From: Chiloscyllium plagiosum
Taxonomy: Eukaryota
Direction: 5' to 3'
Length of the DNA stretch: 64,000 bases
NCBI RefSeq assembly: GCF_004010195.1
Contig: NC_057719.1
Coordinates: forward strand, 6,966,740 to 7,030,739
Notes under the pieces: model-generated
The model's input: the letters and a program-made list of their open reading frames with translations, nothing else
The model's database searches: none
Told to the model about the DNA's origin: nothing
Position numbers and translations under genes: made by a program
In this document: positions 4,886 to 45,332 of the stretch, in pieces
How positions within the stretch are numbered: the stretch's first letter is position 1
Layout: every line of letters starts with the position of its first letter

Positions 4886-5016
4886 AGAGGAGAAAGTGAG
4901 GTCTGCAGACGCTGGAGATCAAAGCTGAAACTTTATTGCTGGAACAGCACAGCAGGTCAGGCAGCATCCAGGGAACAGAAGATTCGACGTTTCGGGCACA
5001 TGCCCTTCTTCAGGAA
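4886..5016 (-). mobile_element. PLE 'family A' 3' pseudo-LTR fragment
   Basis: Matches the recurring gagaaagtgagg.ctgcagatgctggag...tttcgggca..gcccttc.tcagg unit. Confidence 0.8.
4983..5016 (-). ncRNA. minimal type I hammerhead ribozyme motif
   Basis: Minus strand: uuc CUGAAGA a GGGCA-ug-UGCCC GAAA cg UC gaa; intact core, helix II, 3-bp helix I. Confidence 0.75.
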
Positions 5017-5044
5017 GTAGAGACCATCAACCTTTGTTATATTT

Positions 5045-6283
5045 GTTGTGGGTATGTTCGCCTAACAGGGAAGTTAGTTTGCAGATGTTTTGTCCCCTTT
5101 CCAGGTGACATCCTCAGTACTATGCATCCTCCTGTGAGGCTCTGTTGCACTGTCAGCTGGAATTTATTTGGTTTGTTTTGCCTGCTTCCAGTTGTTAGTT
5201 GCAGTGATCGGTATATTGGGTCTAGGTCAATGTTTTTATTGATTGAGTCAGTGGATGAATGGCATGCTTCTCAAAATTCTCTGGCTGTGTTCTGGTTTGT
5301 CCTTTTGTGTTGTCCAGCTGATTTGTGGTTCTTATCGGTGTGTATAACCACTAGGGACAGCTGGTCATGGCGCTTAATTGCAAATTGATCTTCATGAAAG
5401 TAGATGGCTAGTTGTCTGCATGTCTGTCCTTCGTAGTGTTTGGAGCAGACCCTGCATATAATCTTGTACACCATATTTGTCCTGCACACGATGGCTATAG
5501 GATCTTTTTGTTCTGGTGAGTTGTTATCTGAGCATGGCTGTTGGTTTGTGCTGTCATGAATCTGAGAGATCTGGCTGTCGGTTCTGAGATTTTTTTTATG
5601 TAAGGTAGAGTGGTTAGTGTGTTGGCTTGTGGCATGTCCTGGCTATGTTGTATGTCTGCAGGGCATCTCCGGATGAAGTTGTGGGGATATCTGTTCTTGG
5701 CAAAGACTTGGAGTGTTCTTTTTTTCTTCTCAGATTGGTAGTGCTGTAGTGTGTTGTAGCCCTTTTGAACAGGGTCCTAATGCAGATTCTCTTGTGTGTG
5801 TTTGGGTGGTGGTGGTTACAGTTCAGGATCTTGGCCGTGTTGTGGCTTTTCTGTACACATATTTGTGCGTCTCCTGTTCTTTCTACCATCACATCTAGGA
5901 ATGGGAGTTGGTTGTTAGTTTCCTCTTCTCTCTTTGATCCTTGTGAGCATGATGATAATTCAGTGTGTGCTCATGATATGTTAATAATTTCAAAACTGTC
6001 ATCCACTTATCCAAAGTTTGGGTCTGATTTGTGGGAGGGCTTTTTGTTCTATACGAGCCCAAAGATTTGTTCATATATCTGGCTGCTGAAAATGAAGTGC
6101 ATCATCAAGCACAGGTCCAGTAGCTTGAGTACGCAGTCCTTGTTGATTTGGTTCTCCATCATGTCATCTATTCTGTTTGTCCAGCAGGTTGGCTTTTGTC
6201 TCTTTTAAGGTTTTGGCAATCAAGGTAAACAGCACCATTACATTGAATGAGACCATTGCTTCGTCCTGGTCTACGTTAATGTT
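5045..6283 (-). mobile_element. Penelope-like element (RT C-terminal part and GIY-YIG endonuclease)
   Basis: VYKIICRVCSKHYEGQTCRQL (GIY-YIG); HPNTHKRICIRTLFKRA; MVSFNV.VLFT RT motif; continues at 7946-8025 beyond the inserted LINE. Confidence 0.88.
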
Positions 6284-7945
6284 ATAGAGTCATAGAAATG
6301 TACAGCATGGAAACAGACCCTTCGGTCCAACCCATCCACATTAACAAAAAACCCCACCAAATCTAGTGCCACCTACCAGCACCCTCCAAACCCATATCCC
6401 TCCAAACCCTTCCTATTCATATATCCATCCAAATGCCTCTTAAATGTTGCAATTGTACCAGACTCCACCACTTCCTCTGGCAGCTCATTCCATACGCTTA
6501 TCACCCTCTGTGGAAAAAGTTGCCCCTTAGGTCTCTTTTGTATCTTTCCCCTCTCACCCTAAACCGATGCCCTCTAGTTCTGGACTCCCCCACCCCAGGG
6601 AAAAGACTTTGTCTACTTATCCTATCCATGACTCATAATTTTATAAACCTCTATAAGGTCATCCCTTAGTCTCCAGTTCTCCAGGGAAAGCAGCCCCAGT
6701 CTGTTCAGCCTCTCCCCATAGCTCAAATTCTCCAACCCTGGCCAACATCCTTGTAAACCTTTTCTGAACCCTTTCAAGTTTCACGACGTCTTTCCGATAG
6801 GAATGAGACCAGAATTGCACGCAATATTCCAACAGTGGTCTCACCGATGTCCTGTACAGCCGCAGCATGACCTCCCAACTCCTGTACTCGATACTCTGAC
6901 TGATAAAGGAAAGTATACCAGACACCACCTTCATTATCCTATCTACCTGCGACTCCACTTTCAAGGAGCTATGAACCTGCACTCCAAGGTCTCTTTGTTT
7001 AGCAAAACTCCCTCTGACCTTACCATTAAGTGCATAAGTCCTGCTAAGATTTGCTTTCCCAAAATGCAGCACCTCGCATTTATCTGAATTAAGCTCCATT
7101 TGCCACTTCTCAGCCCACTGGCCCATCTGGTTAAGATCCCGTTGTAATCTGAGGTAACCTCCTTCGTTGACCACGACACCTCCAATTTTGGTATCATCTG
7201 TAAACTTATTAACTATACCCATTATGCTCACATCCAAATCATTTATATGAATGACAAAAAGTAGAGGGCCCAGCACCGATCTTTGTGGCACTCCACTGGT
7301 CACAGGCCTCCAGTCTGAAAAACAACCCTCCACCACCACCCTCTGTCTTCTACCTTTTGAGTCAGTTCTGTATCCAAATGGCTGTATTCCGTGTGACCTA
7401 ACCTTGCTAACCAGTCTCCCATGGGGGACCTTGTCGAATGCCTTACTGAAGTCCATATAGATCACATCTACTGCTCTGCCCTCCTCAATTCTCTTTGTTA
7501 CTACTTCAGAAAAACTCCAATCAAGTTTGTGAGACATGATTTCCCACGCACAAAGCCATGTTGACTATCCCTAATCAGTCCTTGCCTTTCCAAATACATG
7601 TACATCCTGTCCCTCAGGCTTTCCTCCAACAACTTATCCACCCCTGATGTCAGGCTCACTGGTCTATAGGCCATGATCCCTAATCAGTCCTTGCCTTTCC
7701 AAATACATGTACATCCTGTCCCTCAGGATTCCCTCCAACAACTTATCCACCCCTGATGTCAGGCTCACTGGTCTATAGTTCCCTGGCTTGTCCTTACCAC
7801 CCTTCTTAAACCGTGGCACCACGTTAGCCAACCTCCAATCTTCCGGTACCTCACCTGTGACTATTGATCCAAATATCTCTGCAAGAGGCCCAGCAATCAC
7901 TTCCCTAGCTTCCCGCAGAGTTCTAGGATACACCTGATCAGGTCC
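6284..7945 (-). mobile_element. CR1/HER1 LINE inserted into the PLE RT
   Basis: 292-aa ORF with DFSKAFDKVPH, SGVPQRSVLGP, KFTDDTK; upstream PGNYRPVSLTS; tgtt at both junctions (6280-6283, 7946-7949). Confidence 0.95.
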
Positions 7946-8025
7946 TGTTCTTGATATTTTCTCGGAATTCCTGTGGTGATTGCATGGAGTGTTTGGATCC
8001 GCCGATTAAATGTTTGAGTTTTTGT
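7946..8025 (-). mobile_element. upstream continuation of the split PLE RT
   Basis: Reads QKLKHLIGGSKHSMQSPQEFRENIKN and joins NVDQDEAMVSF at 6280. Confidence 0.75.
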
Positions 8026-8276
8026 CATATGTACTCAAGCTGTCATCCAAACACAGATACATATGTTTTTAATCGATCAGTTCAGGGATACTAATACACA
8101 TATTGAGAGTAGATAAGACTTGAAGCTGGACCTTCTGCCTCAAAATTATGGACCCTACCACTGTTCCATAAGAATCCTCAAAACTTTAATAGAGAGGAAG
8201 CAGTGGCGACATCTATGAGAAGTCTTGAATCACCAACCTTCTTGGTTAGTAGCTGAATATGCTGACCAAATATGCC

Positions 8277-9178
8277 TGTGTGTAAAGCGGAGGTTGACCC
8301 CATTCAGAACTAAAACCAAAACACCCAAGGAGGAACATCTCACTCTATAATCGGTTAAAAAGAGTGCCAGAAGGGGTGTAACCAGTTTTTCAGCAACCTG
8401 TAGTGGTTAAAAGAAATGCTTGACACACACTTTAGTCAACACTTAACAATTTATTTATCTAACTCTCATAATGTGAACAAATTAGCTAAACTATTGAACA
8501 AACTGAACAAATCCCTTCTAACGACTAAGTATTAACTAGTAACCATTCTTGAATAATGCAAGATTGTAATGATAGGCTGTTCCAACAAATAGGAGTCCCA
8601 CTCAACAAAAAACGTCTCTTAAAAATTACGGCCAGATTGCACGTCTTCTGGAGTGTCCTGTGCCGCCTCTGTTGTTCTGTTATTATTTGCTTTCTTAGTT
8701 GTTCTTCTGTCAGGAACATCTTCCCATCACTGGTACTGTTATTATCTAGATGGTCCTTTCTCTAATAGATGGTTGTGAGATTCTCTCTGGAGCTGAGGGC
8801 TTTTAGCTCTGGCAAATAACAATTAGTTATGGTGTCTTTGTCCAACTGCCCCCCTTATTTTATACCTTGAAGTTGTATTAATTTCTTACAATAAGTTTGG
8901 TCTCGTTGTCAAATTCATCAGATTTAAATTTAATAGGTTTTTGGAAAGTAAGGGCCTGGTTTAAATTGGCTATATTCATATCCTGTCGTCTTGTTAAAAA
9001 CTGCAGCTTGATCTACATTTTGATACAAATGTTACAGTTCGAGTGCTGTCTATGCACCTGCAAACTTTAAAATTGCTGTTCACAAACATTCATTTTTAAA
9101 TCTAAGCACAGAAAAAGCACCATCTTTTAAAGGAACGGCTCAATGCTTTCCCTATTTTAAAATTTTGCGCACATCACC
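8277..9178 (-). mobile_element. probable solo LTR related to 42401-43084
   Basis: Colinear patchy similarity to the 42401 LTR at the start and over the distal third; tttatt (AATAAA on minus); ends uncertain. Confidence 0.5.
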
Positions 9179-9548
9179 AAATTCTAACTTCCTGCCTTCC
9201 AAATCTACAATTACTCTACCCACTTTTGCAACAATATTTTATCTATCTTTTCAAAGATAACTACACAACTCTAGAGCAGATGATACTTGAATCCGGGTCT
9301 CCTGGCTCAGAAATGGGGACACTACTGCTGTGCCACAAGAGTTCTTCCTCTCTTTCTGTGTGCTTAAGGTGAATTTATACTATTAGCATATTGAACAGAT
9401 GCATCTAAAATGCTGTTCCATTGAATTGGTGGAAGGGTTGATCATAAGTGATCTTGTAATTGGATGTCACAGATGTCTATTTATTTGTAATTGAGGCTGC
9501 ATACTGTGTCTCATCAGTTCTGCCTCATTTCTGCCTTTAAGATTATAG

Positions 9549-9733
9549 TCAGGAGTTGCACAACACCAGGTTATAGTCCAGCAGGTTTACTTAAAATCAC
9601 AAGTTTTTGGAGCACTTTACCTGACAAAGGAGCAGCACTCCAAAAGCTTGTGATTTCAAATAAACTTGTTGGATGCTAACCTAGTGACTTCACTTTGTCC
9701 ACACCAGTCCGACACCAGCACCTCCACATCATC
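9549..9733 (+). mobile_element. PLE 'family B' fold-back mini-insertion
   Basis: Inverted arms plus ~35-nt tail, homologous to 45130-45332; 11-bp TSD taagattatag at 9538-9548 and 9734-9744; hammerhead core decayed. Confidence 0.8.
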
Positions 9734-9955
9734 TAAGATTATAGATAACTGTTGCATTTGCAATTTGATTTTAAAGAAAAGTTTGCCATGTAAATATGTA
9801 TAAAAATAAAACACACACAATGCTGGAAATCAAAATAAAATCGGACAGTGCTGGAACCAGTCACTCTGGTCAATTGGCATTAGGTGGAAAGAGAGTTGAT
9901 GGTGCCATGATCTTCCATCAGAACATGTGCATTCTGCTTATATTAAGAATGATTC

Positions 9956-10074
9956 AAAGTTTGTGCGAAGAAGCGCTTCGCAGGAGGCTCCCAAGCACTG
10001 ATGATGTCGCCTAGCCAGGGGACGAAACGTTTGCAACAAAAACTTCCAGCTCGGCGAACAGAACCACATCAAGA
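9956..10074 (+). mobile_element. PLE pseudo-LTR mini-insertion (family of 5045/15712)
   Basis: Homologous to the PLE 3' end at 15712-15815; TSD aatgattc at 9948-9955 and 10075-10082. Confidence 0.75.
9995..10034 (+). ncRNA. minimal type I hammerhead ribozyme motif
   Basis: gca CUGAUGA u GUCgCCU-agcc-AGGgGAC GAAA cg UU ugc; helix I gca/ugc. Confidence 0.75.
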
Positions 10075-10122
10075 AATGATTCTGTGGGATTTAGAAGAAA
10101 TGGAGAGCCTGACGTATGTTGA

Positions 10123-10249
10123 CAGAAAGTGAGGACCGCAGATGCTAGAGATTAGAGTCCAGAGTGTAGTGCTGGAAAAGCACAGCAGGTCAGGCAGAAT
10201 CTGAGGTGTACGAGAATCGACATTTTGGGCAAAAGCCCTCCATTAAGAA
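10123..10249 (-). mobile_element. PLE family A pseudo-LTR fragment (decayed hammerhead)
   Basis: Similarity to 4886-5016. Confidence 0.8.
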
Positions 10250-10881
10250 GCCATAGCAGTCATGTACCTGATGGTGTGAGCCTGTGACTTAATGAGGTTC
10301 TGGACTGGAGCACAACAACTATTTTCTTAAAAGTTGAATTGAGTATAACAGCAGGAGCCAGCACATTGTTAATGCAGCATGAGGCTGTCACATTGAGGTT
10401 CTATTGACAAGTGATTAGAGGGGCTATTTTTCATGAGTGGAATACCTTGACTTTAGATTCAAAAGTGAATTTCTTAATAGTGAATTAACTGTTGTACTTA
10501 ACAGAAATGTTTCTCTTTGTGCCATTCCCAAAAAGACTAGTCTGTAAACTGGTGTATAGGGTCAGGCCCCACACACGCATGCATGCTGACACGTGTGCTT
10601 CCTCTGTGTGGAGCAGTAAGCCTACCTTAAAGCACAAAGCTAGCAGTCCTTAAATTTGTGTGGGGGGTTTGGAATTCATTGCCATCTGTTGCTTGGCATT
10701 GGAGAAGAATTCCTTTCTTGCCTGTGTATCGCCATAGCAATACAGTTGAGATAAAAAGCAAGCAGTTGCCATAGTGATGATCTGACAGCCTATCTCCTCT
10801 CAGTAGAGGAGATGGCCATTGGAGCTGGTTAATTCACATTCCTTGAGGCCTAGTCGGCATGCTTTGTTGGATTTCGAGTTA

Positions 10882-11091
10882 TGAACGTAGAAAGTACAAT
10901 ATTATAGTGTAGTACAGGCCCTTCGGCCCTCTGTTCTGCCGACCTGTGAAACCAGTTTGAAACCCATCTAACCAACACTATTCCATTTTCGTCCATATGT
11001 CTATCCAATGCTCATTTAAATGCTCTTAAAGTTGGTGAGTCTACTACTGTTGCAGGCAGGCCGTTCCACGCCCTTACTACTTTCTGACTAA
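10882..11091 (-). mobile_element. CR1-clade LINE 3' end
   Basis: caggcccttcggccc tail motif; gagtta repeated at 10876-10881 and 11092-11097 (possible TSD). Confidence 0.7.
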
Positions 11092-11844
11092 GAGTTAGTG
11101 GTGCTTTGCTTGTCTTACATGCTGTATTTCCAATGCAAGTGTGTAATTAAAGGAATACACTTTAAAGAAAATTATGGTGGCATTCGAGGCTTTTTGATGG
11201 CTTTGCCTTTTTGCTTGTTTGTTTTTCACTCTTTTCAAGGGAGGCATTGTTGCAAACTCCATCCAGATGGGCAAGTATGATTGACTTGTATGTTTTTTGC
11301 ATGGTGACTGCAATAGATGACTTAACGAGTGACATAATGTTACATTTGATGACCTGGTCAAAAGTCTTTCAATTCATTTTATAGCTGCAATACCTGGTGG
11401 CCCATACTCTTGAACTACTCGATTATCCTGTGTTCTCCTTGACCTCACAGCCAGTGGTATCCATTTCAGCCATTGTGCCCTGCTCTCTGCTGTCAACTGT
11501 TTGTTCTTAAAAGCCACCTAAAGAAAAATCTATCTTACTGAATGTTCACTTTGACTATCTCTTCAACCAATTATTTCCTTTTCCATTCCTGTCCTTGTTC
11601 ATTTTACCAAAATGCAATACCTGACAATTATCTAAATTCGTAGCAGAATGTGTTTGCACTGTTTGCTAACAAAGTGGAAATTGTTACCCATTGCTCTACA
11701 CTTTTACATGTTGCTGTTCCTTGTATGTGGTGGTTTATAGAAATTTAAGTTTTCACTGACTTTCTCTGTGATTGTTCTAATCTTAGGAATTGAGTATTGT
11801 ATATCTTGTTTATTTCTCTCTACTTTCTATCATGTGAAAAAATT

Positions 11845-12610
11845 GATGTCAGAGTCATACAGCACAGAAACAGACCCTTCAATCCAACTTGTTCATTCCA
11901 ACCAAATTTCTCAAGCTAAACTATTCCCATTTCCCTGCATTTGGCCCAAATCCATCTAAACCTTTCCTATTCATGGACCTGTCCAAATGTGTTTTGTATG
12001 TTGTAACTGTACCTGCATCTATTGCTTTCTTTGGCAATTCATTCCACTAATGTGTGAAAAAGTTGCCTCTCAGGTACCTTTTTAAATCTTTCTCCTCTCC
12101 CCTTAATTATATGTCCCCTAGATTTTAACTCCCCCCACACTGGGGAAAAGATCTTTGCTATTCACCTAACATAAGCCGCCTCATGATTTTATTAATCTCT
12201 ATAAGGTTACCTCTCCACTTCCTCCACTCCAGTCGGGGGAAAAAAGTCCGAGCCTCTCCTTATAACTCAAATCTTGGTATACCTTTTCTGGACCCCTTCC
12301 AATTTAATAATAATCTTCCGAAAGCAGAGCAACCAGAACTATACACAGTATTCCAAAAGTGACCTCACCCATGTCATATACAACCTCAACATGACATCCC
12401 AACTCTATACTCAGATGTTTGAGCCATGAAGGCAAATGTGTTAATTCCTTAACCACCCTGACTACCTGTGATGCAACTTTCAAAGAGCTATGTACCTGAA
12501 GCCCTAATTCTCTCTGTTCAACAACGCTATCCAAGGCCCTACCATTAATTATATAAATCCTGTCCTTTTTCCGTTTTACTAAAATGCAATACCTGACAAC
12601 TATCTAAATT
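11845..12610 (-). mobile_element. 5'-truncated CR1 LINE
   Basis: EQRELGLQVHSSLKVASQV segment and CR1 tail. Confidence 0.88.
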
Positions 12611-15711: not shown

Positions 15712-16262
15712 TGGGGTGTAGGTTTGCTCGCTGAGCTGTAGGTTTGATATCCAGACGTTTCATTACCTGGCTAGGTAACATCATCAGTAGCGACCTCCAA
15801 GTGAAGCGAAGCTGTTGTCTCCTTTCTATTTATATGTTCGTCCTGGATGGGGTTCCTGGGGTTTGTGGTGATGTCATTTCCTGTTTGTTTTCTGAGGGGT
15901 TGATAGATAGTATCTAAATCTGTGTGTTTGTTTATGGCGTTGTGGTTGGAGTGCCAGGCCTCTAGGAATTCTCTGGCATTTCTTTGCTTAGCCTATCCCA
16001 GGGTAGATGTGTTGTCCAAGTCGAAATGGTGGGTTTTTTTCATCCAGTGTAGGGCTACGAGGGAGAGAGGGTCATGTTTTTTTGTGGCTGGCTGGTGTTT
16101 GTGTATCCTGGTGGCTAACTTTCTTCCTGTTTGTCCTACGTAGTGTTTGTGGCAGTCCTTGCATGGAATTTTGTAGATGACGTTGGTTTTGTCCATGGGT
16201 TGTACTGGGTCTTTTAAGTTTGTTAGTTTTTGTTTGAGAGTGTTGGTGGGTTTGTGTGCTAC
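15712..16262 (-). mobile_element. Penelope-like element 3' end (GIY-YIG and pseudo-LTR)
   Basis: NVIYKIPCKDCHKHYVGQTGRKLATRIHKH. Confidence 0.9.
15751..15790 (-). ncRNA. minimal type I hammerhead ribozyme motif
   Basis: Minus strand: cua CUGAUGA u GUUACCU-agcc-AGGUAAU GAAA cg UC ugg; 7-bp helix II. Confidence 0.8.
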
Positions 16263-18669: not shown

Positions 18670-19208
18670 AAGAGTGTGGTGCTGGAGAAGCATACCAGGT
18701 CAGGCAGCATCCAAGGAGCAGGAGAATTGAAATTTCGGGCATAAGCTTTTCATCAGGAATGAGCTTCATTCCTGCTGAAGGGCACATGCCTGAAACATCG
18801 ATTCTGCTGCTTCTCAGATGCTGCCTGACCTTACATTAGATTAGATTACATTAGATTACATTACAGTGTGGAAAGAGGCCCTTCGGCCCAACAAGTCCAC
18901 ACCGACCCGCCGAAGCGAAACCCACCCATACGCCTACATTTACCCTTTACCTAACACTACGGGCAATTTAGTATGGCCAATTCACCTGACCCTGCACATC
19001 TTTGGACTGTGGGAGGAAACCGGAGCACCCGGAGGAAACCCACGCAGACACGGGGAGAATGTGCAAACTCCACACAGTCAGTCGCCTGAGGCGGGAATTG
19101 AACCCGGGTCTCTAGCGCTGTGAGGCAGCAGTGCTAACCACTGTGCCACCGTGCCAGCAAAACACTCTCTACTTGGATCTCCAGCATTTGCAGCTCTCAC
19201 TTTCTCTA
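18670..19208. mobile_element. PLE family A fold-back insertion interrupted by a SINE
   Basis: Inverted arms around 18765; TSD ggttt(g/t)atgattc at 18657-18669 and 19209-19221. Confidence 0.8.
18832..19155 (-). mobile_element. young full-length HE1-like SINE
   Basis: CpG-rich and nearly identical to 54083-54401; (taatg/taatc)n tail. Confidence 0.95.
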
Positions 19209-26844: not shown

Positions 26845-27984
26845 GTAATTCAACAATTTCTTTTTTGAATCGTCTTACTTTGTCCAGACCAAAGGGGTAG
26901 CCATGGGCCCCAGCTATGCTTCTTCAGTTTCCTGAAGAAGGGCTTATGCCTGAAACGTCGATTCTCCTGTTCCTTGGATGCTGCCTGACCTGCTGCGCTT
27001 TTCCAGCAACACATTTTCATCCCAGCTATGCTTCCCTCTTTGGGTACGTGGAATCGTCTGTCTTCGCAGCTACTCTGGCACCTCGCCCTACCTCTCTCTC
27101 ACCCCACCCCCTGCTGTATCGGCGAGTTTGCTAACACATTCCACCCCGACCTTAAGTTCACCTGGACCATCTCTGACACCTTCCTCTCCTTCCCGGCCCC
27201 CTCCATTCTCATTTCCAGTGACCTACTCAACACTGTTATCTACTACAAACCCACCGACTCCCACAGCGACTTGGATTACACCCACTGTCTCCCATAAAAT
27301 CGCTATCCCATATTCCTAATTCCTCAGCCTCTGTTGCTTCTGTTCCCAGGAAGACCAATTCCATGACAAAACATCCCAGATGGCTTCCTCCTCCTTATTC
27401 TATCTCCTACTCCCACCAATGCCAACTCGCAGAACATTTCAGAGAACATCTCTGGGGCACATGCACCAAACAACCCCACTGCCCTGTAGCTGAACACTTT
27501 AACTCCCCCCTCCATTCCACCAAGGACATGCAAGTCCTGGGCTGTCTCCACCACCAAACCCTTACCACCCAATGCCTGGAGGGCGAATATCTCATCTTTT
27601 GCCTTGGGACCCCCCAGCCTCATGGGATCAATGTGGATTTCACCAGTTTCCTCATTTAGCTCCCCCTACCCCTCCCCCACCTTATCCCAGATCCAACTTT
27701 CCAACTCTACACCTGTCCCACCTGTCCATCTTCCTTCTCACCTATCCACTCTGCCCTCCTTTCTCACCTATCACCTTCACCCACCTATCGCTTTCTCAGC
27801 CACCCCCCCCTCCCCCTCCCATTTATTTCTTAGCCCCTTTCGGCCATAAGCCTCATTCTTGATGAAGAGCTTATGCTCAATGTCAACTCTCCTCTCCTCG
27901 GATGTTGCCTGAACAGCTGTGCTTTTATAGCACCATGCTCCTTGATTCTAATCTCCAGCATCTGCAATCCTCACTTTCTCCTGA
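26845..27984 (+). mobile_element. internally deleted PLE (family A parent): RT and GIY-YIG remnants plus pseudo-LTR
   Basis: QTKGVAMG.PSYA, FHPDLKFTWTIS, YYKPTDSHS.LDY, HCPVAEHFNSP.HS. Confidence 0.85.
26923..27020 (+). mobile_element. 98-bp hammerhead-bearing family A insertion inside the PLE RT
   Basis: 14-bp TSD cccagctatgcttc at 26909-26922 and 27021-27034; CUGAAGA a GGGC-uuau-GCCU GAAA cg UC. Confidence 0.85.
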
Positions 27985-29882: not shown

Positions 29883-30202
29883 TGGGCAGCATGCTGGCTC
29901 AGTGGTTAGCACTGCTGCCTCTCAGCACCAGAGACCCGCGTTTGACTCCCACCTTGGGCAGCTGTCTGTGTGGAGTTTGCACGTTCTTCCCGTGTCTGGG
30001 TGGGTTTCCTCCGGATGCTCCAGTTTCCTCCCAAAATCCAAAGACGTGCAGGTCGGGCGCATTGACCATGCTAAATTGCCCATAGTGTCAGGGGTAAATA
30101 TAGGGTGGAGGAATGGGTATGGGTGGGTTACTCTTCGGAGTGTCAGTGTGGACTTGTTGGACCGAAAGGCCTGTTTCCGTACTATAGGGAAATCTAATCT
30201 AT
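29883..30202 (+). mobile_element. HE1-like SINE
   Basis: tRNA head, V-domain, aatct tail. Confidence 0.92.
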
Positions 30203-30512
30203 TTTCTGAATGGTCAGTTGTACATTTAAATAAAAAATCTCTAAAACCACTGATATTCCAACTTGCCAACTTCATTTAGTTTAACCATTGGATGACATAA
30301 GACTAACACCCAGCCACATTGTAATATTAGTTATAAACTGGGTTTGATACTTTTTGCACAGTCTTATCTATATGGTTTAATGCAGCTCATTCAATGTTCT
30401 GTTACTGATTTTGGGAGTTGAGAATTTGGGATATATAGTTTAATATGTTTGAAAAATTGATTGCGATGATTACTTCACCCAGAAAGCATCTATCAGGTTA
30501 ATTTTCTCATGT

Positions 30513-30824
30513 GGGTGGCACGGTGGCTCAGTGGTTAGAACTGCTGCCTCCTCTGACCAGGGTCCCAGGTTTGATTCCAGCCTTGGGGGATTGTTTGTGT
30601 GGAGTTTGCACGTTCTTCCCGGGTCTGCGTGGGTTTCCTCCGGGTGCTCCGGTTTCCTCCCACAGTCCAAAGATGTGCAGGTCAGGTGAATTTGCTAAAT
30701 TGCCTATAGTGTTAGGTGTATTAGTCAGAGGGAATTGGGTCAGGGTGGGTTACTCTTCGGAGATTTGGTGTGGACTTGTTGGGCCAAAGGGCCTGTTTCC
30801 ACACTGTAGGGAATCTAATCTTAA
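30513..30824 (+). mobile_element. HE1-like SINE
   Basis: tRNA head, V-domain, aatct tail. Confidence 0.92.
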
Positions 30825-31037
30825 TTTGTTGAGAAATTCCCTCTTTCCAAGTCATGAGGACCTTCAGATGTTTTATTTTTCATGTTTAGTGCTGCTCACT
30901 TGGTGTTGGTTATGATGTTTGACAGACTTATTTGTGCCTGGGCACTTGGACAGCCCATGTGCCAGAATTGTACTTCAGTTTCCAAATTGATTATTTCATA
31001 TAGCAAAGTTTTTGATTAGACTGTAAGATTTAGAACA

Positions 31038-31255
31038 AGGAGAAAGTGAGGACTGCAGATGCTGGAGAACAGAATCGAAGAGAGTGGTGTTGGAAAGGTG
31101 CAGCTGGTCAGGCAGCATCTGAGGAGCAGGAGAATTGACCTTTCAGGCATAAGTACTTAAGGAATCCTGATGAAGGGCTTATACCTGAAATGTCGATTCT
31201 CCTCCTCTGATGCTGCTTGTCTGGCTGATCTTTTTCAGCACCACATTCTTCAATA
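31038..31255. mobile_element. PLE family A fold-back insertion
   Basis: Inverted arms; TSD taagat(t/a)tagaa at 31024-31035 and 31256-31267; ggaauc-CUGAUGA...GAAAugUC-gauucu hammerhead-like motif at 31161-31200. Confidence 0.8.
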
Positions 31256-35636: not shown

Positions 35637-36458
35637 GCAGATGGGCCAATGGGCTGAGAAGTAGCAGATGGAGTTTAATTCAGATAAATGTGAGGTTGTG
35701 CATTTTGGGAAATCAAATCTGAGCAGGACTTATACACTTAATTGTAAGGTCCTCGGAAGTGTTGCTGAACAAAGAGACCTTAAAGTGCAGGTTCGTAGTT
35801 CCTTAAGTGGAGTTGCAGGTAGATAGGATAGTGAAGGCGGCATTTGGTATGCTTTCCTTTATTGGTTAGAGTATTGAGTACAGGAGTTGGGAGGTCATGA
35901 TGCAGCTGTGCAAGATATCGGTTAGACCACTTTTGGAATATTGCGTGCAATTCTGGTCTCCTTTCTATCGGAAAGATGTTGTGAAACTTGAAAGGGTTCA
36001 GAAAAGATTTACAAGAATGTAGCCAAGGTTGGAGGATTTGAGCTATAGGGAGAGGCTGAATAAGTAGGAGCATTGGAGGCTGAGAGGTGACGTTTATAGA
36101 GGTTTATAAAATCATGAGCACAAATAGGATAAATATACAAAGTCTCTTCCTTGGGGTGAGGGAGTCCAGAACTAGAGGGCATAGGTTTAGGGTGACAGGG
36201 GAAAGATATGAAAGAGACCTGAGGGACAACTTTTTCACACACAGGGTGGTACGTGTATGGAATGAGCTGCCAGAGGAAATGGTGGAGGCTGGTACAATTA
36301 CAACATTTAAAAGGCATCTGGATGGGCATATGAATAGGAAGGGTTTGGAGGGATATGGGCCGGGTGCTGGCAGGTGGGACTAGATTGGGTTGGGATATCT
36401 GGTCGGCATGGTCGGGTTGGACCGAAGGGTCTGTTTCCATGCTGTACATCTCTATGAC
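35637..36458 (+). mobile_element. 5'-truncated CR1 LINE
   Basis: FIEVYKIM...RTRGH...FFTHRVVRVWNELP; CR1 tail. Confidence 0.92.
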
Positions 36459-36753
36459 ATACTGTAAAGGCACAGAGATTAAAAGATTGTACAAATGGTG
36501 TGAATGGAGTGTCAACAGGCTGAATAATAAGTCTCTCCAGGTGATAAAAAGTGTCAGAGGGTGAATAAAGTGTCAATAACTGAATAACAAATGAAAGGAT
36601 GACCAATGATCTGATTAATTGAGGCAGAGAGATTAAAAATATTAAAAATAACGTGGTATAGGAAACAAACTAAATGGCTGGAGTAACATGATAGGTGCTG
36701 AAAATGTGTTGCTGGAAAAGCGCAGCAGGTCAGGCAGCATCCAAGGAACAGGA

Positions 36754-36791
36754 GAATCGACGTTTCGGGCATGAGCCCTTCTTCAGGAATG
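36754..36791 (-). ncRNA. minimal type I hammerhead ribozyme motif
   Basis: Minus strand: cauuc CUGAAGA a GGGC-ucau-GCCC GAAA cg UC gauuc. Confidence 0.75.
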
Positions 36792-37270
36792 AGGAACGTG
36801 TGCCAAGCAGGCTAAGATAAAAGGTAGGGAGGAGGGACTTGGGGAAGGGGCATTGGAAATGCGATAGGTGGAAGGAGGTTAAGGTGATGGTGATAAGCCG
36901 GAGTTGGAGGTGGGGGCGGAGAGCTCAGGAAGAAGATTGCAGGTTAGGAAGGTGGTGCTGAGTTCGAGGGTTGGGACTGAGACAAGGTGGGGGGAGGGGA
37001 AATGAGGAAACTGGAGAAATCTGATTTCATCCCTTGTGGTTGGAGGGTTCCTAGGCAGAAGATGAGGCGCTCTTCCTCAATCCGTCATGTTGCTATGGTC
37101 TGGTGATGGAGGAGTCCAAGGACCTGCATGTCCTTGGTGGAGTGGGAGGGGGAATTGAAGTGTTGAGCCATGGGGTGGTTGGGTTGGTAGGTCCGGGTGT
37201 CCCAGAGGTGTTCTCTGAAACGTTCAGCTCCCCCCTACCTTTTATCTCAGCCCGCTTGGCACACCAGCCT

Positions 37271-37308
37271 CATTCCTGAAGAAGGGCTTATGTCCGAAAC
37301 GTCGATTC
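37271..37308 (+). ncRNA. minimal type I hammerhead ribozyme motif
   Basis: cauuc CUGAAGA a GGGC-uuau-GUCC GAAA cg UC gauuc. Confidence 0.7.
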
Positions 37309-38476
37309 TCCTGCTCCTCGGATGCTGCCTGGCCTGCTGTGTTTTTTCAGCACCACATTTTTCAACTCTGGTCTCCAGCATCTGCAGTCCTCACTTTTTC
37401 CAACTTGATCCCTGTGCCAACTCTTTTTCAAATTTTTGGAGGTGGGTATGAAGAAGAGATGTTTAACTGTTGTATATTTTTGATTTGGCACCTGTAAAAC
37501 ACATATATTTCAGTAGAATGAAAGTGCACTGTAGCATGTCCTGAAGGCAAGTGACTTAAGTGCCATGTAGCCCATGCTTATGCTGTATCTGCCTCTTCAT
37601 TTCAGAAACTGTAAAGATGATGTATGTTGTGCACACAGTGAAATACTTTTAACCTCTATGAAATATTTATTTTGATAAAATTACCATCATTTATAGTCAA
37701 AACTCTTCTCTTCATTCAAATCTCTAATGATGGCTGTCCCTAATAGAAACAACTAATCCAAAGCAATTTAGAGCTGTTGAAGTACCTTTTAAGTGTAGTC
37801 ATTATGTCCTGCTGCGAAATGCAGCAGTTAAGTTTATGGTTGCTGTGATGTGCAGTATTTGAGACCATGGTGGATGGATGCAAATTCAGTTGTAACTTTC
37901 AAAAGGGACTTGGATAAGCACTTGGAGGAAGAATGGCTACTGGGAGTGTGTTAGGGAGTGAAACTAGCTTAATTACTCTCTCAAAGAACTGGCACAGACT
38001 TTGGCTCAGTGGTCTTTTGTGCTACAACCACAACTGGAGTGTTGGACTTGAAACTGTTTTGGCATCAGCAATAACTTTGGCCTTTTCAGTGAAGTCCCTT
38101 TTCTATTAACAGATTAAAAAGCAAGGCACGCAGTAGAAGCTTACCAGGAGTTGTTACTAGCACCACTGATTTTCTTGATAAATGTTAATCATTTAGGTCA
38201 AGAAATGCTGGCTGTAATTTCAAAGCTGCAGATGATAAAGAAGATGGAGGTATAGTAAACCATTAGGAATATAAGCAATGGTCACCAAAGCATGTAGTTT
38301 AGTCAGACATATAGCAAATGAAATTGACTGACTGCAGAGAAATATGAATTGTTACCTTTTGGTGGGAGTGAGAGAATAAGCAAGGTAAAATGAGGAAAAT
38401 GATTGTAAGAAGGCTGCACAAGCAAAGAAACCTGTTGGGAAATGTACACATTTGCCTGTGGTTAGTTGAGAAATAG

Positions 38477-38800
38477 GGGCAGCATGGTGAAACAGTGGTT
38501 AACGCTGCTGCCTCACAGTGCCAGGGCCTCGGCTTCGATTCCGGCCTCGGGTGACTGGAATTTGCACATTCTCTGTGTCTGATGGGTTTCTGCTGCATGC
38601 TCCAGTTCCATTCTGCAGTCCAGAAACGTTCAGGATAGGTAGATTGGCCATGCTATATTGTTCATAGTGTCCAGAGATGTGGAGGTTAGGTGGATTAGCT
38701 GTGGTCCGTGCAGAGTTACAGGGATAGGGTGGGGAAGTGATTCTAGGTAAGATGCTGTTCGGAGGGCCTCTGTTTGCGCACTAGGAATTCTATGATTTTA
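38477..38800 (+). mobile_element. older HE1-like SINE inside an old LINE fragment
   Basis: tRNA head ggggcagcatggtg...cagtggtt and V-domain. Confidence 0.85.
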
Positions 38801-39099
38801 GATATGTCTGAAAAAGATGCTAAGATTACAAAAATGAGAAAATTGAAGAATCAGCTTCACTGATTTGGCCATCAGTGAGATATTCTGAGCAAATGTATCT
38901 CGGGAAGGATGCAAATGCTTTTGGGAGGTATCAGAAAAGATTTATGAAAATAGTTCTAGAAATGTGCAGTCAGTTACCCTCCTGTGTTCTGGGCTTTCTC
39001 ATGATGGCTCATGAAATCCTAGCTGTCCAGCAGTGCTGGAAATATATTGCAGCACCTTTGAATTCTGTCCAACTCTCTGCTATCCTGTGGGATAATAAA

Positions 39100-39510
39100 A
39101 GAAATTTGCATTTATATGGTGCATTTCACAATCTTAGGACTTCATAAAGTACTTTACAGCTGTTAAAATCCTTTTGAAGCATGGTCAGTTTTGTAATCGT
39201 GTGAATGCAACCGGCCTTATACAAACAGTAAATTCCCAAAAACATTCGTTTGGTAATAACAAGCTAATCTCGCTTTGTATGTTGATTGAGCATTGATTAT
39301 GGGAAAGGAAACTGGAAAACCACTTCCCTGTTGTTGAAAATGACATTGTGGGATCTTTTGCATCCATCGAACCAAGCAGATTTGGCTTGTCAGAAAATTC
39401 TAAATCCTGCATTGCAAAGTCAGCCTTGATTTTTGTGCTCAAGCCCAAGAAAGGGACTTGAACCTGGAACCTTATGGCTTATAGTTGAAATTGGTGACAA
39501 CTTCACCAAG
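39100..39510 (-). mobile_element. ancient SINE with L2-like tail (AmnSINE/DeuSINE-like)
   Basis: ttgcatttatat...ctttacagc...ttttgaag tail motif (also near 21660, 37760, 62410) and a B-box-like ggttcaagtcc on minus. Confidence 0.45.
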
Positions 39511-39778
39511 ATTGACAATAACATTCATTTAGATTCTCAAGGTGTCGCTGATTCTTTGAACACTGATTTATGGATTAAATAATATTAGGGTGACACACCC
39601 TGGTTAGCACTGATGCCTCACAGGTTCAGGGACCTGGATTCAATTCCAGCCTTGGGAGACTGCAAACTTCACGCAGGCACACACACTCTCTTTGTCTGGT
39701 GTAAGTTTCCTCAGGGTGATTCTGTTTTGTCCTGCAGTCCACAGGTGAGCAGATCAGGTGGATTGGCCGTGCTAAGTT

Positions 39779-41294
39779 GAGTCATTGAGATGTACAGCAT
39801 GGAAACAGACCCTTTGGTCCAACCTGTCCAGGCCAACCAGATATCCCAACTCAATCTAGTCCCACCTGCCAGCACCCTGCCCATGTCCCTCCAAACCCTT
39901 TCTATTCTTATTCCCATCTAAATGCCTCTTAAATGTTGCAATTGTACCAGCCTCCACCACTTCCTCTGGCAGCTCATTCAATACGCATACCACCCTCTGT
40001 GTGGAAAAAGTTGCCCCGTAGGTCTCTCTTAAATCTTTCCCCTCACCCTAAACCTATGCCCTCTAGTTCTGGACTCCCTCACCCCAGGGAAGAGAATTTG
40101 TCTATTTACCCTATCAATGCCCCTCATAATTTTGTAAACCTCTATTAGGTCATCCCTCAGCCTCCGACACTCCAGGGAAAACAGCCCCAGCCTGTTCAGC
40201 CCCTCCCTAGAGCTCAAATCCTCCAACCCTGGCAACATCCTTGTAAATCTTCTCTGAACCCTTTCAAGTTTCACACCATCTTTCCGATAGGAAGGAGACC
40301 AGAATTGCACGCAATATTCCAACAGTGGCCTAACCAATGTCCTGTACAGCCACAACATGACCTCCCAACTCCTGTACTCAAGACTCTGACCAGTAAAGGA
40401 AAGTATAGCAAACGCCACCTTCACTATCCTATCTACCTGCGACTCCACTTTCAAGGAGCTATGAACCTGCACTCCAAGGTCTCTTTGTTCAGCAACACTC
40501 CCTAGGACCTTACCATTACTGGGCAGCATGGTGGCACAGTGGTTAGCACTTCTGTCTCACAGCGCCAGAGACCTGAGTTCAATTCCCACCTTGGGCGACT
40601 GTCCGTGTGGGTTTCTCCCCATGTCTGCGTGGGTTTCCTCCGGGTGCTCTGGTTTCCTCCCACAATCCAAAAGATGTGCAGGTTGGCTATGCTAAATTGC
40701 CCATAGTGTTAGGTGTAGGGGAGCGGGTCTAGGTGGGTTGCTGTTCAGAGGGTTGGTGTGGACTTGTTGGGCCGAAGGGCCTGTTCCCACACTGTAAATA
40801 ATCTCATCTAATCTAATCTAATCATTAAGTCCTGTTAAGATTTGCTTTCCCAAAATGTAGCACCTTGCATTTATCTGAATTAAACTCCATCTGCCACTTC
40901 TCAGCCCATTGGCCCATCTGGTCAAGATTCTGTCCACTACACCTCCAATTTTGGTGTCATCTGCAAACTTACTAACTGTAACTCTTTTATGCTCACATAC
41001 AAATCATTTATGTAAATGACAAAAAGTAGAGGACCCATCACTGATCCTTGTGGCACTCCACTGGTCACAGGCCTCCAGTCTGAAAAACAACCCTCTACCA
41101 CCACCCTCTGTCTTCTACCTTTGAGCCAGTTCTGTATCCAAATGGCTGTATTCCATGAGATCTAACCTTGCTAATCAGTCTCCCATGGGGAACCTTGTCA
41201 AACACCTTACTGAAGTCATCATATCTACTGCTCTGGCCTCATCAATCCTCTGATACTTCCTCAAAAAAACTCAATCAAGTTTGTGAGACATGAT
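39779..41294 (-). mobile_element. CR1/HER1 LINE
   Basis: 166-aa RT C-terminal ORF 40029-40529; closely similar to 6284-7945. Confidence 0.95.
40520..40822 (+). mobile_element. HE1-like SINE nested in CR1
   Basis: Full SINE; catta repeated at 40514-40518 and 40823-40827. Confidence 0.9.
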
Positions 41295-41750
41295 GGGTCT
41301 TGGGATGAGCAGGTAGGTCGGTTGGCCATGGGAAATGCTGTCTTCCAGGGGTAAGGGTGGAGGGTGGGTGTGGGACGGATGCTGTTCGGAGGGTCAGTGT
41401 GGAATCAATGGGCCCGATGACCTGCTTTCACACTGTAGGGATTCTAATATTTTGTTTCTTAAAAATAAGCTATGCACTAATAGATATCCATTGGTTTACT
41501 AATTTCCACTTCTGAAGAAAGTGTCAACCAACTGGGTGATATATTGGAGTTTGTCTGAACTGGCTGAACAAGTATTGTTTTGAATACACTAACATACCAA
41601 ATAGACACACTGCCTTCGTTTTCTTGTGAGAATACACAACATGTTGTCATCCATCCATTCTCGATATATATCACTAATGTTGAGGTTAGGACCAAATATA
41701 ATATTTCCAAATTTTTAGAGGATATCAAGCTAAGTAGGAGTGTATATTGA

Positions 41751-41928
41751 ACTGGAAATAGATTTGCTCGCTGAGCTGGAAGTTCATTTCCAGACATTTT
41801 GTCACCCTACTCGCAACATCTTCAGTGGGTCTCCAGGCAAAACGTCTGAAAATGAACCTTCCAGCTCAGCGACGAAACCTGCATCCAGAACCTCAACCTG
41901 AACTGCAAATCTTCTTAAAAATCACTAA
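41751..41928. mobile_element. PLE fold-back mini-insertion (family of 15712)
   Basis: Inverted gctgagctggaag/cttccagctcagc arms; 10-bp TSD tgtatattga at 41741-41750 and 41929-41938. Confidence 0.8.
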
Positions 41929-41938
41929 TGTATATTGA

Positions 41939-43420
41939 GGAAGATGTCAAGAGACATCAATAAGATTCGGGCAGGCTTATTGAATGGCCAAGTGCATCGT
42001 AGATGGAATGTAAGTGGAAAAATTAGTTTATCCACTTAGGAGAAACAGATGTGCAAAGTAATTCTTAAATGGTTAGTAATTGGAAAGTGTAAATGTAGAA
42101 AGGAATCCAGGTGTCCTTGTCAATAAATCACTGAAGACTAATGTACAAGTGCAACAAGCTATTAGGAAAGCAAATTGAGTGCTAGGTTTTCGTGCAAGAG
42201 GATTTGGCTACGAAAGTGGTGAAGTTTTGCTTCAGTTGTGTAAGAGCTTGATCAGACGCACCTGTATGACTGCAATTTTGGTCTCTTTACCTCAGGAAAG
42301 ATATTATTGTCATTGAGGGAGTGCAACAAAGGATCACTAGATTTGTGTGTAGGAAACAGAACTGTCCCTTGAGGAGAGGTTGAATAAACGGAATCTGTAT
42401 TGTTACGACTTGGTGTAAACCCCTCTGCTAATTTAAACCTGATACTCTGAGAAGCTCACCTCGTGCTGTAATCTGTTAAATTTCGAGAGCCAGAGAACTA
42501 TCCCAGAGGTCACTATTTAAGGGATTTATTCTTTAAGTTCAACAGAGAATGTTAAAACAACTGTTTACAACTCCTTTCTCTTAAACCTATCTTTTACCTC
42601 CTACTCCACAATGCTGGTTCGATAAATACCCTCTTAAATGTCTGGCAAAATAAATTTCAAACCCAGGTATAGTCTTCAGATGTCGAACTTTCTCTGTAGA
42701 TTCCTCTAGATTGACTTTGGTGTTCTGCGGCACAAATTTCTTATAGACCGTTACCTTTCAGTGAGCTACTTGGCTAGCAGTCTGTTTTTTGGCACTCATT
42801 GCTGTCTCTAACTGTTCAAAATGTCAGGTTTGATAACCCTAAAACATTGGATCATTTCATTGGTTTGATGTTATTCCAAACAGTAAAATTTAAATTAGAT
42901 TTGAATTTTGATATCTGGGGTATAATTTAAACTGGCCGAATTTCAATTTGGTTTTGGTGCATGGCAACACAGCATTTGTGTCAACCAAATGTTACATTTT
43001 TAAATCTTTTACACTATGTGCTTCTAAGTTCCTGCCAGCTCCCCCTCTCCTAAAGGCACAGTACACACCTAGACCTTCATAACAGTATTCTCTCAAATTT
43101 CAAAGAATGAGATGATCTTATTGAAACCTACAAAATACTTAAAGGTACAGATAGGGTAGATGCAGATATCCAGGGGAACAATTTTATAGTCAGGGATAGC
43201 CACTTAAGTCAGAGTTGAAACTATTTTATTCAAAGGTTTGTGAACCTTTAGAATTCTCTTCCCTAATTATATTTAGGGGAGAGATAGATAGATAGATAGA
43301 ATTTGGATTACCAGTGGTGTGTAGGGTTAAGGGGATGGGTGATTTAAAATGTTCAATCAGGCATGACTATAGAGAATGGCAGAGCAAGCTCGATGGGTTG
43401 AGTGGCCTTCCATTCTGATT
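41939..43420 (+). mobile_element. old CR1/L2-clade LINE split by a solo LTR
   Basis: RT C-terminal sequence resumes after 43088 (gatcttattgaaacctacaaaat). Confidence 0.7.
42401..43084 (-). mobile_element. solo LTR
   Basis: TGTTACGA...TCATAACA inverted termini; perfect 4-bp TSD GTAT at 42397-42400 and 43085-43088. Confidence 0.88.
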
Positions 43421-44367
43421 TTTTACCAGTTAAACTTTGCTGATATCAAAATGATCTTGGAGAGGTAAAGAGAGTTTTGGGTTTAGTGCTGATTTGCTGT
43501 CCTTTCAATATATTAGCATGTTTCCTTCTGTTACATGGAGAAACCATGATAAGCAAGCTGTTAAATATTTAAGCCAAAATATCTCTCAACTCCCATATAC
43601 CTAGCATGTTTAATATGTTTAACAGTTGCTTTATTTTAGTCTGTAGTAATAATGGCCTTTTGTATGATTTGACCTTGCAGGTGACCGATTAATCACTTTG
43701 GTTTTGTTGTAGCTTCTTTTGAATCTAGTATCAGACATATTGCTTTGCTATAGTTTTTTTTTGTTAAATAGGTATTTGATATTCGGTATTTGTAATGTTC
43801 CTATTTTGGCTAACCAGTGGACCCACTTCATGTTTTGTCATCTTTGGAAAAAGTATCTATCTGATGCGGAAATAATATTAAATCCTTTGTGACATTGGTT
43901 TGCCTGATCAAGTTGAATCCGGTTGTATTCTAATCATTATTACTGTGATGTTTTCCTGCATGGAGGTATGATTTTGAGATTACAACAAAAGTAGTATCAA
44001 ATGTTTGACTACTGATTTGTTTTCTTACTAGAATAGAAATTGGTAGTCAAATAAAGACGGAAGGTCCAGATGGTTTGCCACCTATAATCTGGTAGCCACA
44101 AGATACAATGATGATTAAGCTATTGACTGATCGTAGCAGTTAATTATCAATGATCATTTAACAGTGCAAGTGGTAAAGAGCTTTGGATTCTAAAAGCCTA
44201 AGGTCGCATGTTTCACTCCAGCATGCCACGCTCACTACCTTTTGCATTTTAAGTGTTACTTTCATCACAGTTATTTTCAGAAAGTACTTTATATAATTTA
44301 CTTTTAAATGAATTAATACTAACTACTTTCCCCCGTTTCCCTGGGAAGACTGTGTTTCACAGAACAG

Positions 44368-44531
44368 AGTTGAGTATGTGTTGCTGGAAAAGCACAACCG
44401 GTCAGGCATCATCTGAGGAGCAGGACTATTTTCGATTTTCCTACTCCTCTGATGCTGCCTGACCTGCTGTGCTCTTCCAGCAGTACACTCTCAACTCTGA
44501 TTTGCAGCATCTGCAGACCTCGCTGTCGCCC
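44368..44531. mobile_element. PLE family A fold-back insertion (hammerhead region absent)
   Basis: TSD tgtttca(c/t)agaacag at 44353-44367 and 44532-44546. Confidence 0.8.
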
Positions 44532-45129
44532 TGTTTCATAGAACAGTCAGTTTGCCTGCAAATATTATTTATGCTGATTCATCTTGGATTTGGCCCTGCC
44601 CATCGTGAGCAGTGGTCTCTAGATTTACAAGTTGGATTGATTTGTCACATCTGCATTATCTTAAAAAATCAAGTATCAACTTTTTCACGCAGGGGGTGGT
44701 GCATATATATGGAATAAGCTGCCAGAGGAAATGGTGGAGTTGTAGATCTCGATCCCTGGGAGGGGTGTCTCAGTTCCGCGATCGATCAAATAAGCAACAG
44801 GAATGTGGTCTGCTTCAGCAAGTTTCACAGTTTATTTTGATACCGGGCACAGATTTGTCCAGCAACATAGAGCTTAACAGCTTCTGTGTTCCTTTGAAAA
44901 ACTGAGTGATTTCACTTGGAACAAAGGCAATTTTTTATGTTTCTTAAGAAATAGTACAGCCTTAATTACAGAATAAAGCCAATAAAATGTAATAAATTAC
45001 ATAATGGGCAACGAGTTAACCCAATGATATTTTCTGGAAAACAAAGTTGTTTACACATTTATCTCTTCCCACCTGCATTTCAAGGTTAACTAAAATAGTA
45101 ATGTCCTATCTAACTTAGTTAATTCCATG

Positions 45130-45332
45130 ATTTGGAGATGCCGGTGTTGGACTGGGGTGTACAAAGTTAAAAATCACACAACACCAGGTTATAGTCCAAC
45201 AGGTTTAATTGGAAACACACTAGCTTTCGGAGCGATGCTCCTTCACAATCACCTGGTGAAGGAGCGTCGCTCCGAAAGCTAGTGTGCTTCCAATTAAACC
45301 TGTTGCACTATAACCTGGTGTTGTGTGATTTT
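45130..45332. mobile_element. PLE family B fold-back insertion in the LTR
   Basis: 83-bp arms 45164-45246 and 45256-45338 with 3 mismatches; 19-bp TSD taacttagttaattccatg at 45111-45129 and 45333-45351; empty site in the paralogous LTR near 16845-16865. Confidence 0.9.
45250..45284 (+). ncRNA. hammerhead-like motif with A6G core change (probably inactive)
   Basis: cac CUGgUGA a GGAGC-guc-GCUCC GAAA gc UA gug. Confidence 0.65.

Follow-up and report, generated by a model that had tools for sequence, protein, structure and literature searches.

Hammerheads of minimal size are carried at the ends of Penelope-like elements (PLEs), and their function has been called unclear in print (PMC8557442). 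The question of what they do is raised again by a 64,000-nucleotide (nt) stretch of the shark Chiloscyllium plagiosum (assembly GCF_004010195.1, contig NC_057719.1, positions 6,966,740 to 7,030,739), referred to below as the window. An earlier note, made from the sequence of the window alone, had described eight such motifs in three PLE families and proposed that they work as obligate dimers joined through a palindromic helix III. In the current study the motifs were found to be, almost certainly, minimal type I hammerheads (min-HHRs) in the pseudo-long terminal repeats (pLTRs) of PLEs. The motif class is known, and the families found here, named A, B and C, are new and very abundant. The data as a whole are probably best explained by ribozymes that lie directly behind a capped transcription start in two of the families, by insertions copied from uncut capped RNA, and by rare, protein-assisted dimer cleavage within element transcripts.

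Minimal hammerheads in the window and in the genome

All eight motifs were present where the earlier note had placed them, its numbers being the low ends of the motifs; the C3 positions of the cores are 5013(-), 9998(+), 15787(-), 26932(+), 36786(-), 37276(+), 31167(+) and 45253(+). A strict core descriptor (CUGANGA, 0–1 extra nt, helix II of at least 3 bp, GAAA, 2 nt, UH) gave 7 matches in the window, whereas 200 dinucleotide shuffles averaged 0.1 (maximum 1), a mean that fell to 0.02 once helix I was required. The 45253 core, in which A6 is changed to G, is the only one of the eight outside the strict descriptor. A still stricter form, requiring 2 bp of helix I and a palindromic 2-nt insert, gave 6 matches against 0.005 in shuffles.

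The extra nucleotide of the core is present in all eight sites, as A in families A and C and as U in family B. The G10.1-C11.1 pair is G-C in families A and C, and in family B is divided between G-C (11) and G-U (10) in 21 alignment rows. The uuc/gaa helix I described earlier was confirmed at 5013 only, since at 26932, 36786 and 37276 the UC/GA pairs are followed by a U.U mismatch; 15787 has a U-G pair in helix I, and 9998 a G.G mismatch in helix II. A palindromic ACGU or AGCU stands in place of helix III at most sites, and is lost at 31167 (AUGU). The sole AGCU copy of the window, at 45253, lies inside a near-perfect hairpin (-95.6 kcal/mol), and the 31167 core forms one arm of a hairpin as well. 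Altogether 25 end-repeat copies of these families were found in the window, mostly truncated or decayed.

The sites lack the marks of a canonical type I hammerhead (match to the Rfam model, helix III, 6-bp helix I). An Rfam scan of the window returned 18 matches at E up to 10, none of them to a hammerhead; these matches were to hairpin-driven microRNA models far below threshold and were rejected. Several of them were spurious matches arising from decayed head-to-head end-repeat pairs. Folding the eight sites as monomers gave z-scores of -2.4 to +1.0, which were not informative. The assignment to three PLE families is instead supported by the core anatomy, the shuffle control and the remnants of PLE coding sequence on the same strand: a remnant of reverse transcriptase (RT) type lies 5' of a family A core (RVT_1 match at 5e-08), and GIY-YIG-type motifs were recognized by eye upstream of family A, B and C cores, although a Pfam search of the short PLE fragments gave no GIY-YIG match.

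The very large genome-wide count that the earlier note had anticipated was borne out. In the 3.56-Gb genome, exact patterns matched 69,589 times for family A, 18,671 for family B and 17,087 for family C (105,347 combined), and the reversed control patterns gave 0 matches. An unbiased sample, consisting of 60 stretches of 10 kb from large contigs only plus the window (664 kb, 18,573 N), contained 49 descriptor matches, which would scale to approximately 260,000–270,000 genome-wide.

Stem covariation was also confirmed, for both helices I and II of family B. In an alignment of 24 sequences (21 distinct), 91.4% of cells were paired, compared with 34–47% for slid partners. The outer pair of helix I occurs as GC (12), CG (6) and UA (3), and one helix II pair as CG (14) and UA (4). 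The covariation tool, applied to family B with a structure drawn from those very sequences, found 2 pairs changed on both sides; none of 500 shuffles reached this score, which relatedness can inflate.

The core differed less from the reference than the tail did, in 66 family A copies (3.6% vs 7.0%) and in 25 family C copies (2.0% vs 7.1%). Possible reasons for the difference are selection acting on source elements, base composition and biased alignment; selection on the inserted copies is not demonstrated by it.

Probable transcription start and poly(A) site of the end repeats

The 5' ends of genomic copies were positioned relative to C3 in the unbiased sample. Among 117 family A copies, 44 begin at -11 to 0, 28 further upstream, 29 at +1 to +27, 4 at the cut site and 12 beyond it; among 48 family C copies, 26 begin at -17 to 0, 6 upstream, 16 at +1 to +25 and none at the cut site.

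Many copies carry a non-template G directly before the first templated base. In family C, 3,293 copies have a non-template base before the A at -8, and a hand count of the first 100 gave G 67, T 23 and A 10. When loci were inspected, 22 of 22 with G were truncated exactly at that base, and 6 of 7 with T ran on upstream as C-to-T changes. For a single subtype of family A, the first 100 of 6,490 matches had G (76) or A (24) directly before the A at -4. At a downstream control position the counts were G 31 and A 69 in the first 100 of 253, and a second control gave 22 G of 63 (Fisher p for the G excess versus control, 2e-14 and 2e-10). The extra G was also present on both arms in 3 head-to-head pairs among those listed. 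Upstream of the same bases, 18 of 20 long family C copies have TATAAA at a distance of 28–32 nt from the -8 base, and 27 of 35 long family A copies have TTATCT at 30–32 nt from the -4 base.

An extra G derived from a reverse-transcribed cap is known for other retroelements. As the short A and C copies start 4 and 8 nt before the core behind such a G, a capped start is indicated there: judged from the genomic copies, the G is very probably a reverse-transcribed cap, and in both families a polymerase II start with a cap would lie directly before helix I.

RNA data came from one raw single-cell run of a related organism, with 4,784 reads on a locus containing A and C copies. In family C, poly(A) begins after two positions downstream of the cut site, at 27 nt (487 reads) and 29 nt (601 reads), as was confirmed on a second copy. 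An A(A/T)TAAA hexamer precedes the site by 12–14 nt and a GU-rich tract follows it, and the DNA there is not A-rich. The source of these reads may be host transcripts that terminate at any one of thousands of copies.

The order of elements in family C (TATA box, start, hammerhead, poly(A) site, tail) is thus likely to resemble the U3-R-U5 order of a long terminal repeat (LTR), with an R-like segment of about 65 nt. With a start site before the core and poly(A) behind the cut site, the ribozyme is likely to lie within this R segment. Since the 3' ends of genomic copies lie in the tail, and so past the poly(A) site, their templates either included the 5' repeat or read through.

Template of the inserted copies

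If cut RNA were inserted, copies beginning at the cut site should be common. In family C no pile-up of 5' ends was seen there, and the cut-site pattern was no commoner than its neighbours (54 matches vs 63 and 143 one base to either side). About 6 of 20 inspected cut-site matches were true truncations, and most of the 143 represent one point variant. The lack of a fossil of the cut site among the copies indicates that the inserts come, in all likelihood overwhelmingly, from uncut RNA. This is consistent with in vitro work on the Anolis Poseidon PLE PAc (Frangieh et al. 2024, PMC11167929), in which the hammerhead cuts only with protein and uncut RNA is the dominant substrate, with no reads ending at the cut site.

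Short copies frequently occur in head-to-head pairs. In the 664-kb sample, 33 same-family pairs closer than 200 nt were found among 171 copies, while same-family tandem pairs numbered 0 at less than 200 nt, with 3 more at less than 600 nt. In all DNA examined, tight pairs were same-family in 108 cases and cross-family in 3. The cross-family joints, at the centres of loci L084, L102 and L121, combine A with C twice and B with C once; two of them fall at core sequence common to the hammerheads, which suggests template switching between RNAs.

Among 66 young pairs, 52 had a called target-site duplication, and 51 of these 52 consist of one short and one tailed arm (judged by offsets). Head-to-head arms, a target-site duplication and a tail of 30–40 bp on one arm only have been described for inverted-pLTR insertions of other PLEs (PMC3846280, PMC8557442). 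The one-sided tails fit reverse transcription that begins at two places on a single RNA, once per end of the target, and two internal RT start sites are likewise reported for PAc (PMC11167929).

A two-RNA origin of the mirror pairs, which would favour a dimer in trans, was considered and is mostly unsupported. The two arms had a loop II word in common in 10 of 12 family A pairs (2.9 expected); in family C (5 of 16, 4.2 expected), where CpG decay interferes, the comparison was uninformative.

For inverted insertions PMC3846280 favours self-priming on an antisense template, whereas the extra G found here, at the sense-strand 5' ends and on both arms, points to a capped sense RNA as template. The mirror-image pairs therefore argue against antisense self-priming, and mirror-image PLE insertions in general may be better understood as products of a capped sense template with two RT starts.

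Proposed mechanism and alternative explanations

According to the explanation preferred here, source elements would be transcribed from a start 4–8 nt before the core. The element protein would bind the tail and cut both strands of the target, and reverse transcription would proceed from two tail sites, one per end of the cut target, back to the cap. The products would be short solo or mirror-image stubs, and the hammerhead would stay uncut in this route. Cleavage would be rare, occurring when two R copies at the ends of a unit-length RNA form a protein-assisted dimer, and would remove cap and poly(A). The conserved core and covarying stems indicate that the hammerhead does cut in some setting; that it does so in vivo as a dimer in element transcripts has, from the sequence evidence, close to an even chance, and slightly under it. 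As cut RNA is rarely inserted, the role of the ribozyme is narrowed to uncapping or circularising full-length element RNA.

Several observations weigh against this explanation. Family B showed no start-site pile-up in 17 unbiased copies and, at the single position tested (-19, 101 matches), no G excess. The control position used for the G excess includes point mutations in long copies, as seen for a similar pattern, and is not a pure junction control. A target duplication was called at 9 of the G loci; 5 of these (2 with longer linkers) have no such G in the target, but in the other 4 the target matches it, so that microhomology can explain part of the excess. Neither the start site nor the cut site had a pile-up of read ends in the single-cell run of the related organism, a library unsuited to show either, and no family A poly(A) site was seen in these reads. 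A slight excess of 5' ends was noted at the family A cut site (4 of 117, compared with about 1 per position). Since the core varies half as much as the tail, a view of the copies as dead relics decaying neutrally is likewise unsupported. Finally, no full-length element with both end repeats was recovered; as all copies examined are 5'-truncated, neither the junction of tail and open reading frame (ORF) nor a natural cis dimer was seen. Long open frames, considered as candidates for such an element, were rejected because their length was inflated by N runs.

The alternative that survives best, although it is rather unlikely, is that the motif has been retained for some function other than catalysis (a folded 5' leader, an element near the promoter, a site of protein binding or, in family B, a start codon) and seldom or never cuts. 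Its position at the inferred RNA start and the origin of the inserts from uncut RNA would fit such a role, as would the finding that catalytic mutants of the PAc hammerhead leave insertion in vitro unaffected (PMC11167929) and the spread of Naiad PLEs without canonical hammerheads (PMC8557442). However, the catalytic core, the UH and the palindromic insert are kept in all three families though the stems differ, helix I covaries across the cut site even when this changes a codon, and the Anolis motif does cut with protein (PMC11167929).

A bolder proposal, and an unlikely one, is that PLE end repeats work like retroviral LTRs with the ribozyme in R. Here the hammerheads of the 5' and 3' R, both belonging to a single unit-length RNA, would pair end to end and cut off cap and poly(A), and the RNA would be ligated into a circle and copied through the junction. 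Reverse transcription from tail to cap would then correspond to a strong-stop-like complementary DNA, which would mostly enter the genome as a stub. Long copies with a promoter would have to arise by another route, since the tail is located past the poly(A) site; read-through transcripts or R-to-R strand transfer may serve as well as a circle. A crossover at the cut site, expected as a fossil of the circle, gave no signal in 20 long and 45 short family C copies, a comparison of low power. If true, the circle would supply a missing function for the PLE hammerhead and an explanation of partial tandems.

The obligate-dimer step of the earlier note fits these copies poorly, as their neighbours are head-to-head and not tandem. 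A 2-nt loop that is unable to close means an inactive monomer, and is no proof of dimer formation. In its widest form, in which the genomic copies are active obligate dimers, formed in cis or trans via the ACGU/AGCU palindrome and cutting host and element RNAs widely, the idea is very unlikely. It does draw on the state of the copies: the palindrome is kept in 211 of 255 descriptor matches (2-nt insert at 15.2-16.2: CG 129, GC 82, CpG-decay products CA 20 and TG 16, other 8), a set enriched by the search patterns chosen in this analysis, and all 11 core bases are intact in 43 of 66 A and 17 of 25 C copies. Low dimer activity is also reported for a minimal hammerhead of Schistosoma (PMC4209133). 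On the other hand, the absence of same-family tandem neighbours closer than 200 nt leaves most copies without a same-strand partner, while head-to-head pairs are common and, when transcribed, would form long hairpins burying many cores. In models that omit core contacts, two folded monomers were more stable than the hammerhead dimer in each of the 5 subfamilies tried, and the dimer fold lay 5–22 kcal/mol above the cofold minimum (5 models). Many polyadenylated reads also cross the cut site (depth 1,668), although cut 3' pieces would be too short to align. The hairpins, the weak modelled dimer and the rarity of same-strand neighbours together make scattered copies poor candidates for active dimers.

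It is least probable of all that the 5' pile-up reflects RT stalling or template switching at the edge of the folded hammerhead, or microhomology joining to AT-rich targets, with the G incidental: the scatter of 5' ends over about 10 nt, the target G matched at 4 of 9 G junctions and the two cross-family joints at shared core sequence would suit it, but the G excess is bound to one base per family, is absent at control positions and occurs also in head-to-head joints without target DNA, a TATA box lies 30 nt upstream, and a stall would be expected on the 3' side of the stem, not past it.

What the more than 100,000 insertions provide, in the capped-start explanation preferred here, is a fossil record that places the ribozyme 4–8 nt behind a likely cap, downstream of a TATA box and upstream of a poly(A) site that is in use. 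This start-site, cap and poly(A) anatomy makes the function testable, with natural RNAs of about 65 nt as the molecules to be used for family C.

Comparison with known systems

The min-HHRs of PLE pLTRs were described by Cervera and de la Pena (2014; PMC4209133), including the extra nucleotide, the palindrome and the short helix I. The motifs of the window agree with these metazoan examples in the type I core, the extra nt between 9 and 10.1, the palindromic 15.2-16.2, the short helix I and the lack of a helix III loop, as well as in the presence of several families per genome and of mostly single or opposite-strand copies. Since every structural feature is already in that paper, the motifs belong to a known class. 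They differ in a helix I that is shorter still (2–4 bp) and in copy number, which is at least 105,347 exact matches here compared with approximately 4,000 in coelacanth and 9,000 in Xenopus by a different search. No mention of shark was found in the parts of that paper examined, including one supplement file. A literature search gave no report of shark PLE hammerheads, nor of a cap-derived G or a start site beside a hammerhead, although subscription papers and supplements may hold one.

PAc (PMC11167929) has in common with family B an ATG at the start of helix II, and with the families here the probable use of uncut RNA as template; the available part of that paper maps no capped start or poly(A) site beside the hammerhead and does not treat head-to-head pairs. 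Promoter motifs have been proposed in rotifer pLTRs (TATA and initiator, Inr; PMC3846280, PMC8557442). In Penelope of Drosophila virilis (PMC2377424) the start site lies inside the pseudo-LTR, as is likely here, but the promoter is internal and TATA-less and a 75-bp intron separates start and hammerhead, whereas family C has an upstream TATA box and 8 nt from the putative start to the core. Type I hammerheads related to PLE end repeats also occur in non-LTR retrozymes, which are reported from one cartilaginous fish (bioRxiv 10.64898/2026.07.22.740005). Retrozymes of this kind are tandem repeats, with a hammerhead in consecutive units; this arrangement was not found here, where the copies are dispersed stubs and inverted pairs.

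Features of the window and element context

The features annotated in the window are as follows.

4983..5016, minus strand: family A min-HHR at the 5' edge of a short end-repeat stub; C3 at 5013, cut site after 4986, copy starting 3 nt before C3.
9995..10034, plus strand: family B hammerhead; C3 at 9998, cut site after 10031; A9, extra U and G10.1 form an ATG at 10004.
15751..15790, minus strand: family B hammerhead of a second subfamily; C3 at 15787, cut site after 15754.
15791..16250 (outer limit approximate), minus strand: 3' part of a 5'-truncated PLE, with a broken GIY-YIG endonuclease frame and an upstream end repeat with TATAAA at 15827-15834; motifs recognized by eye.
26929..26962, plus strand: family A hammerhead; C3 at 26932, in a solo stub at 26929-27019.
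26909..27033, plus strand: solo family A stub with target-site duplication (26909-26921 and 27021-27033), inside an older PLE reverse-transcriptase remnant.
31079..31252, both arms: decayed family A head-to-head pair; plus-arm core at 31167 without palindrome; hairpin of -102.7 kcal/mol.
36756..36789, minus strand: family A hammerhead at the end of a truncated PLE; C3 at 36786.
36830..37230 (limits approximate), minus strand: broken GIY-YIG endonuclease C-terminal frame and 3' untranslated region between two inverted end repeats, recognized by eye.
37273..37306, plus strand: family A hammerhead of the inverted arm; C3 at 37276.
45250..45284, plus strand: family C hammerhead variant; C3 at 45253, A6 changed to G, AGCU palindrome.
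45245, plus strand: first base of the plus arm and putative family C transcription start, 8 nt before C3, as derived from genome-wide copies.
45293..45298, plus strand: ATTAAA polyadenylation signal of the family C end repeat; the equivalent hexamer in the reads of the related organism has poly(A) 12–14 nt behind it.
45115..45348, both arms: whole family C head-to-head insertion; duplication at 45115-45126 and 45337-45348, tail on the left arm only.

Family A may belong to the Neptune clade and family B to the Penelope/Poseidon clade, the labels following PMC8557442. The cysteine linker between RT and endonuclease is present in family A fragments, and is lacking in those of family B, from which no full ORF was recovered; family C fragments end before that region. 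Such a linker has been described for Neptune PLEs. In each of the 8 related family B loci inspected, the ATG made up of A9, the extra U and G10.1 starts an open frame that extends through the tail.

Older copies lie close to several of the listed features. An older element resembling family B occupies 5043-6100 (minus strand); its degenerate core, at 5117, is on the same strand as the 5013 core and approximately 100 nt upstream of it. The 26932 stub was inserted into another older element, of family A (27020-27950, plus strand), which retains remnants of RT and endonuclease and a decayed core at 27859. Further decayed head-to-head end-repeat pairs were found at 9559-9686, 18675-18831, 41753-41887 and 44376-44480.

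The end repeats also hold candidate signals. One family A subfamily, seen at 4931-4938 (minus strand), combines a perfect 4-bp helix I with AATAAA about 50 nt behind the cut site, a candidate polyadenylation signal. In family A the tail finishes with a pyrimidine tract that has a branch-point-like word and AG, and may be part of an intron; in family C it finishes at a possible ATG, a candidate start codon. Examples of such tails lie at 37375-37400 of the window and in loci L010 and L062.

Elsewhere in the window, abundant repeats at 29883-30215, 30512-30837, 54080-54407 and other positions presumably represent a tRNA-like family of short interspersed elements and fragments of CR1-type long interspersed elements, the latter with an RVT_1 match at 6662-7564. 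Outside the window, a long minisatellite with units of about 43 nt (L272:1200-4120) adjoins a truncated family A element.

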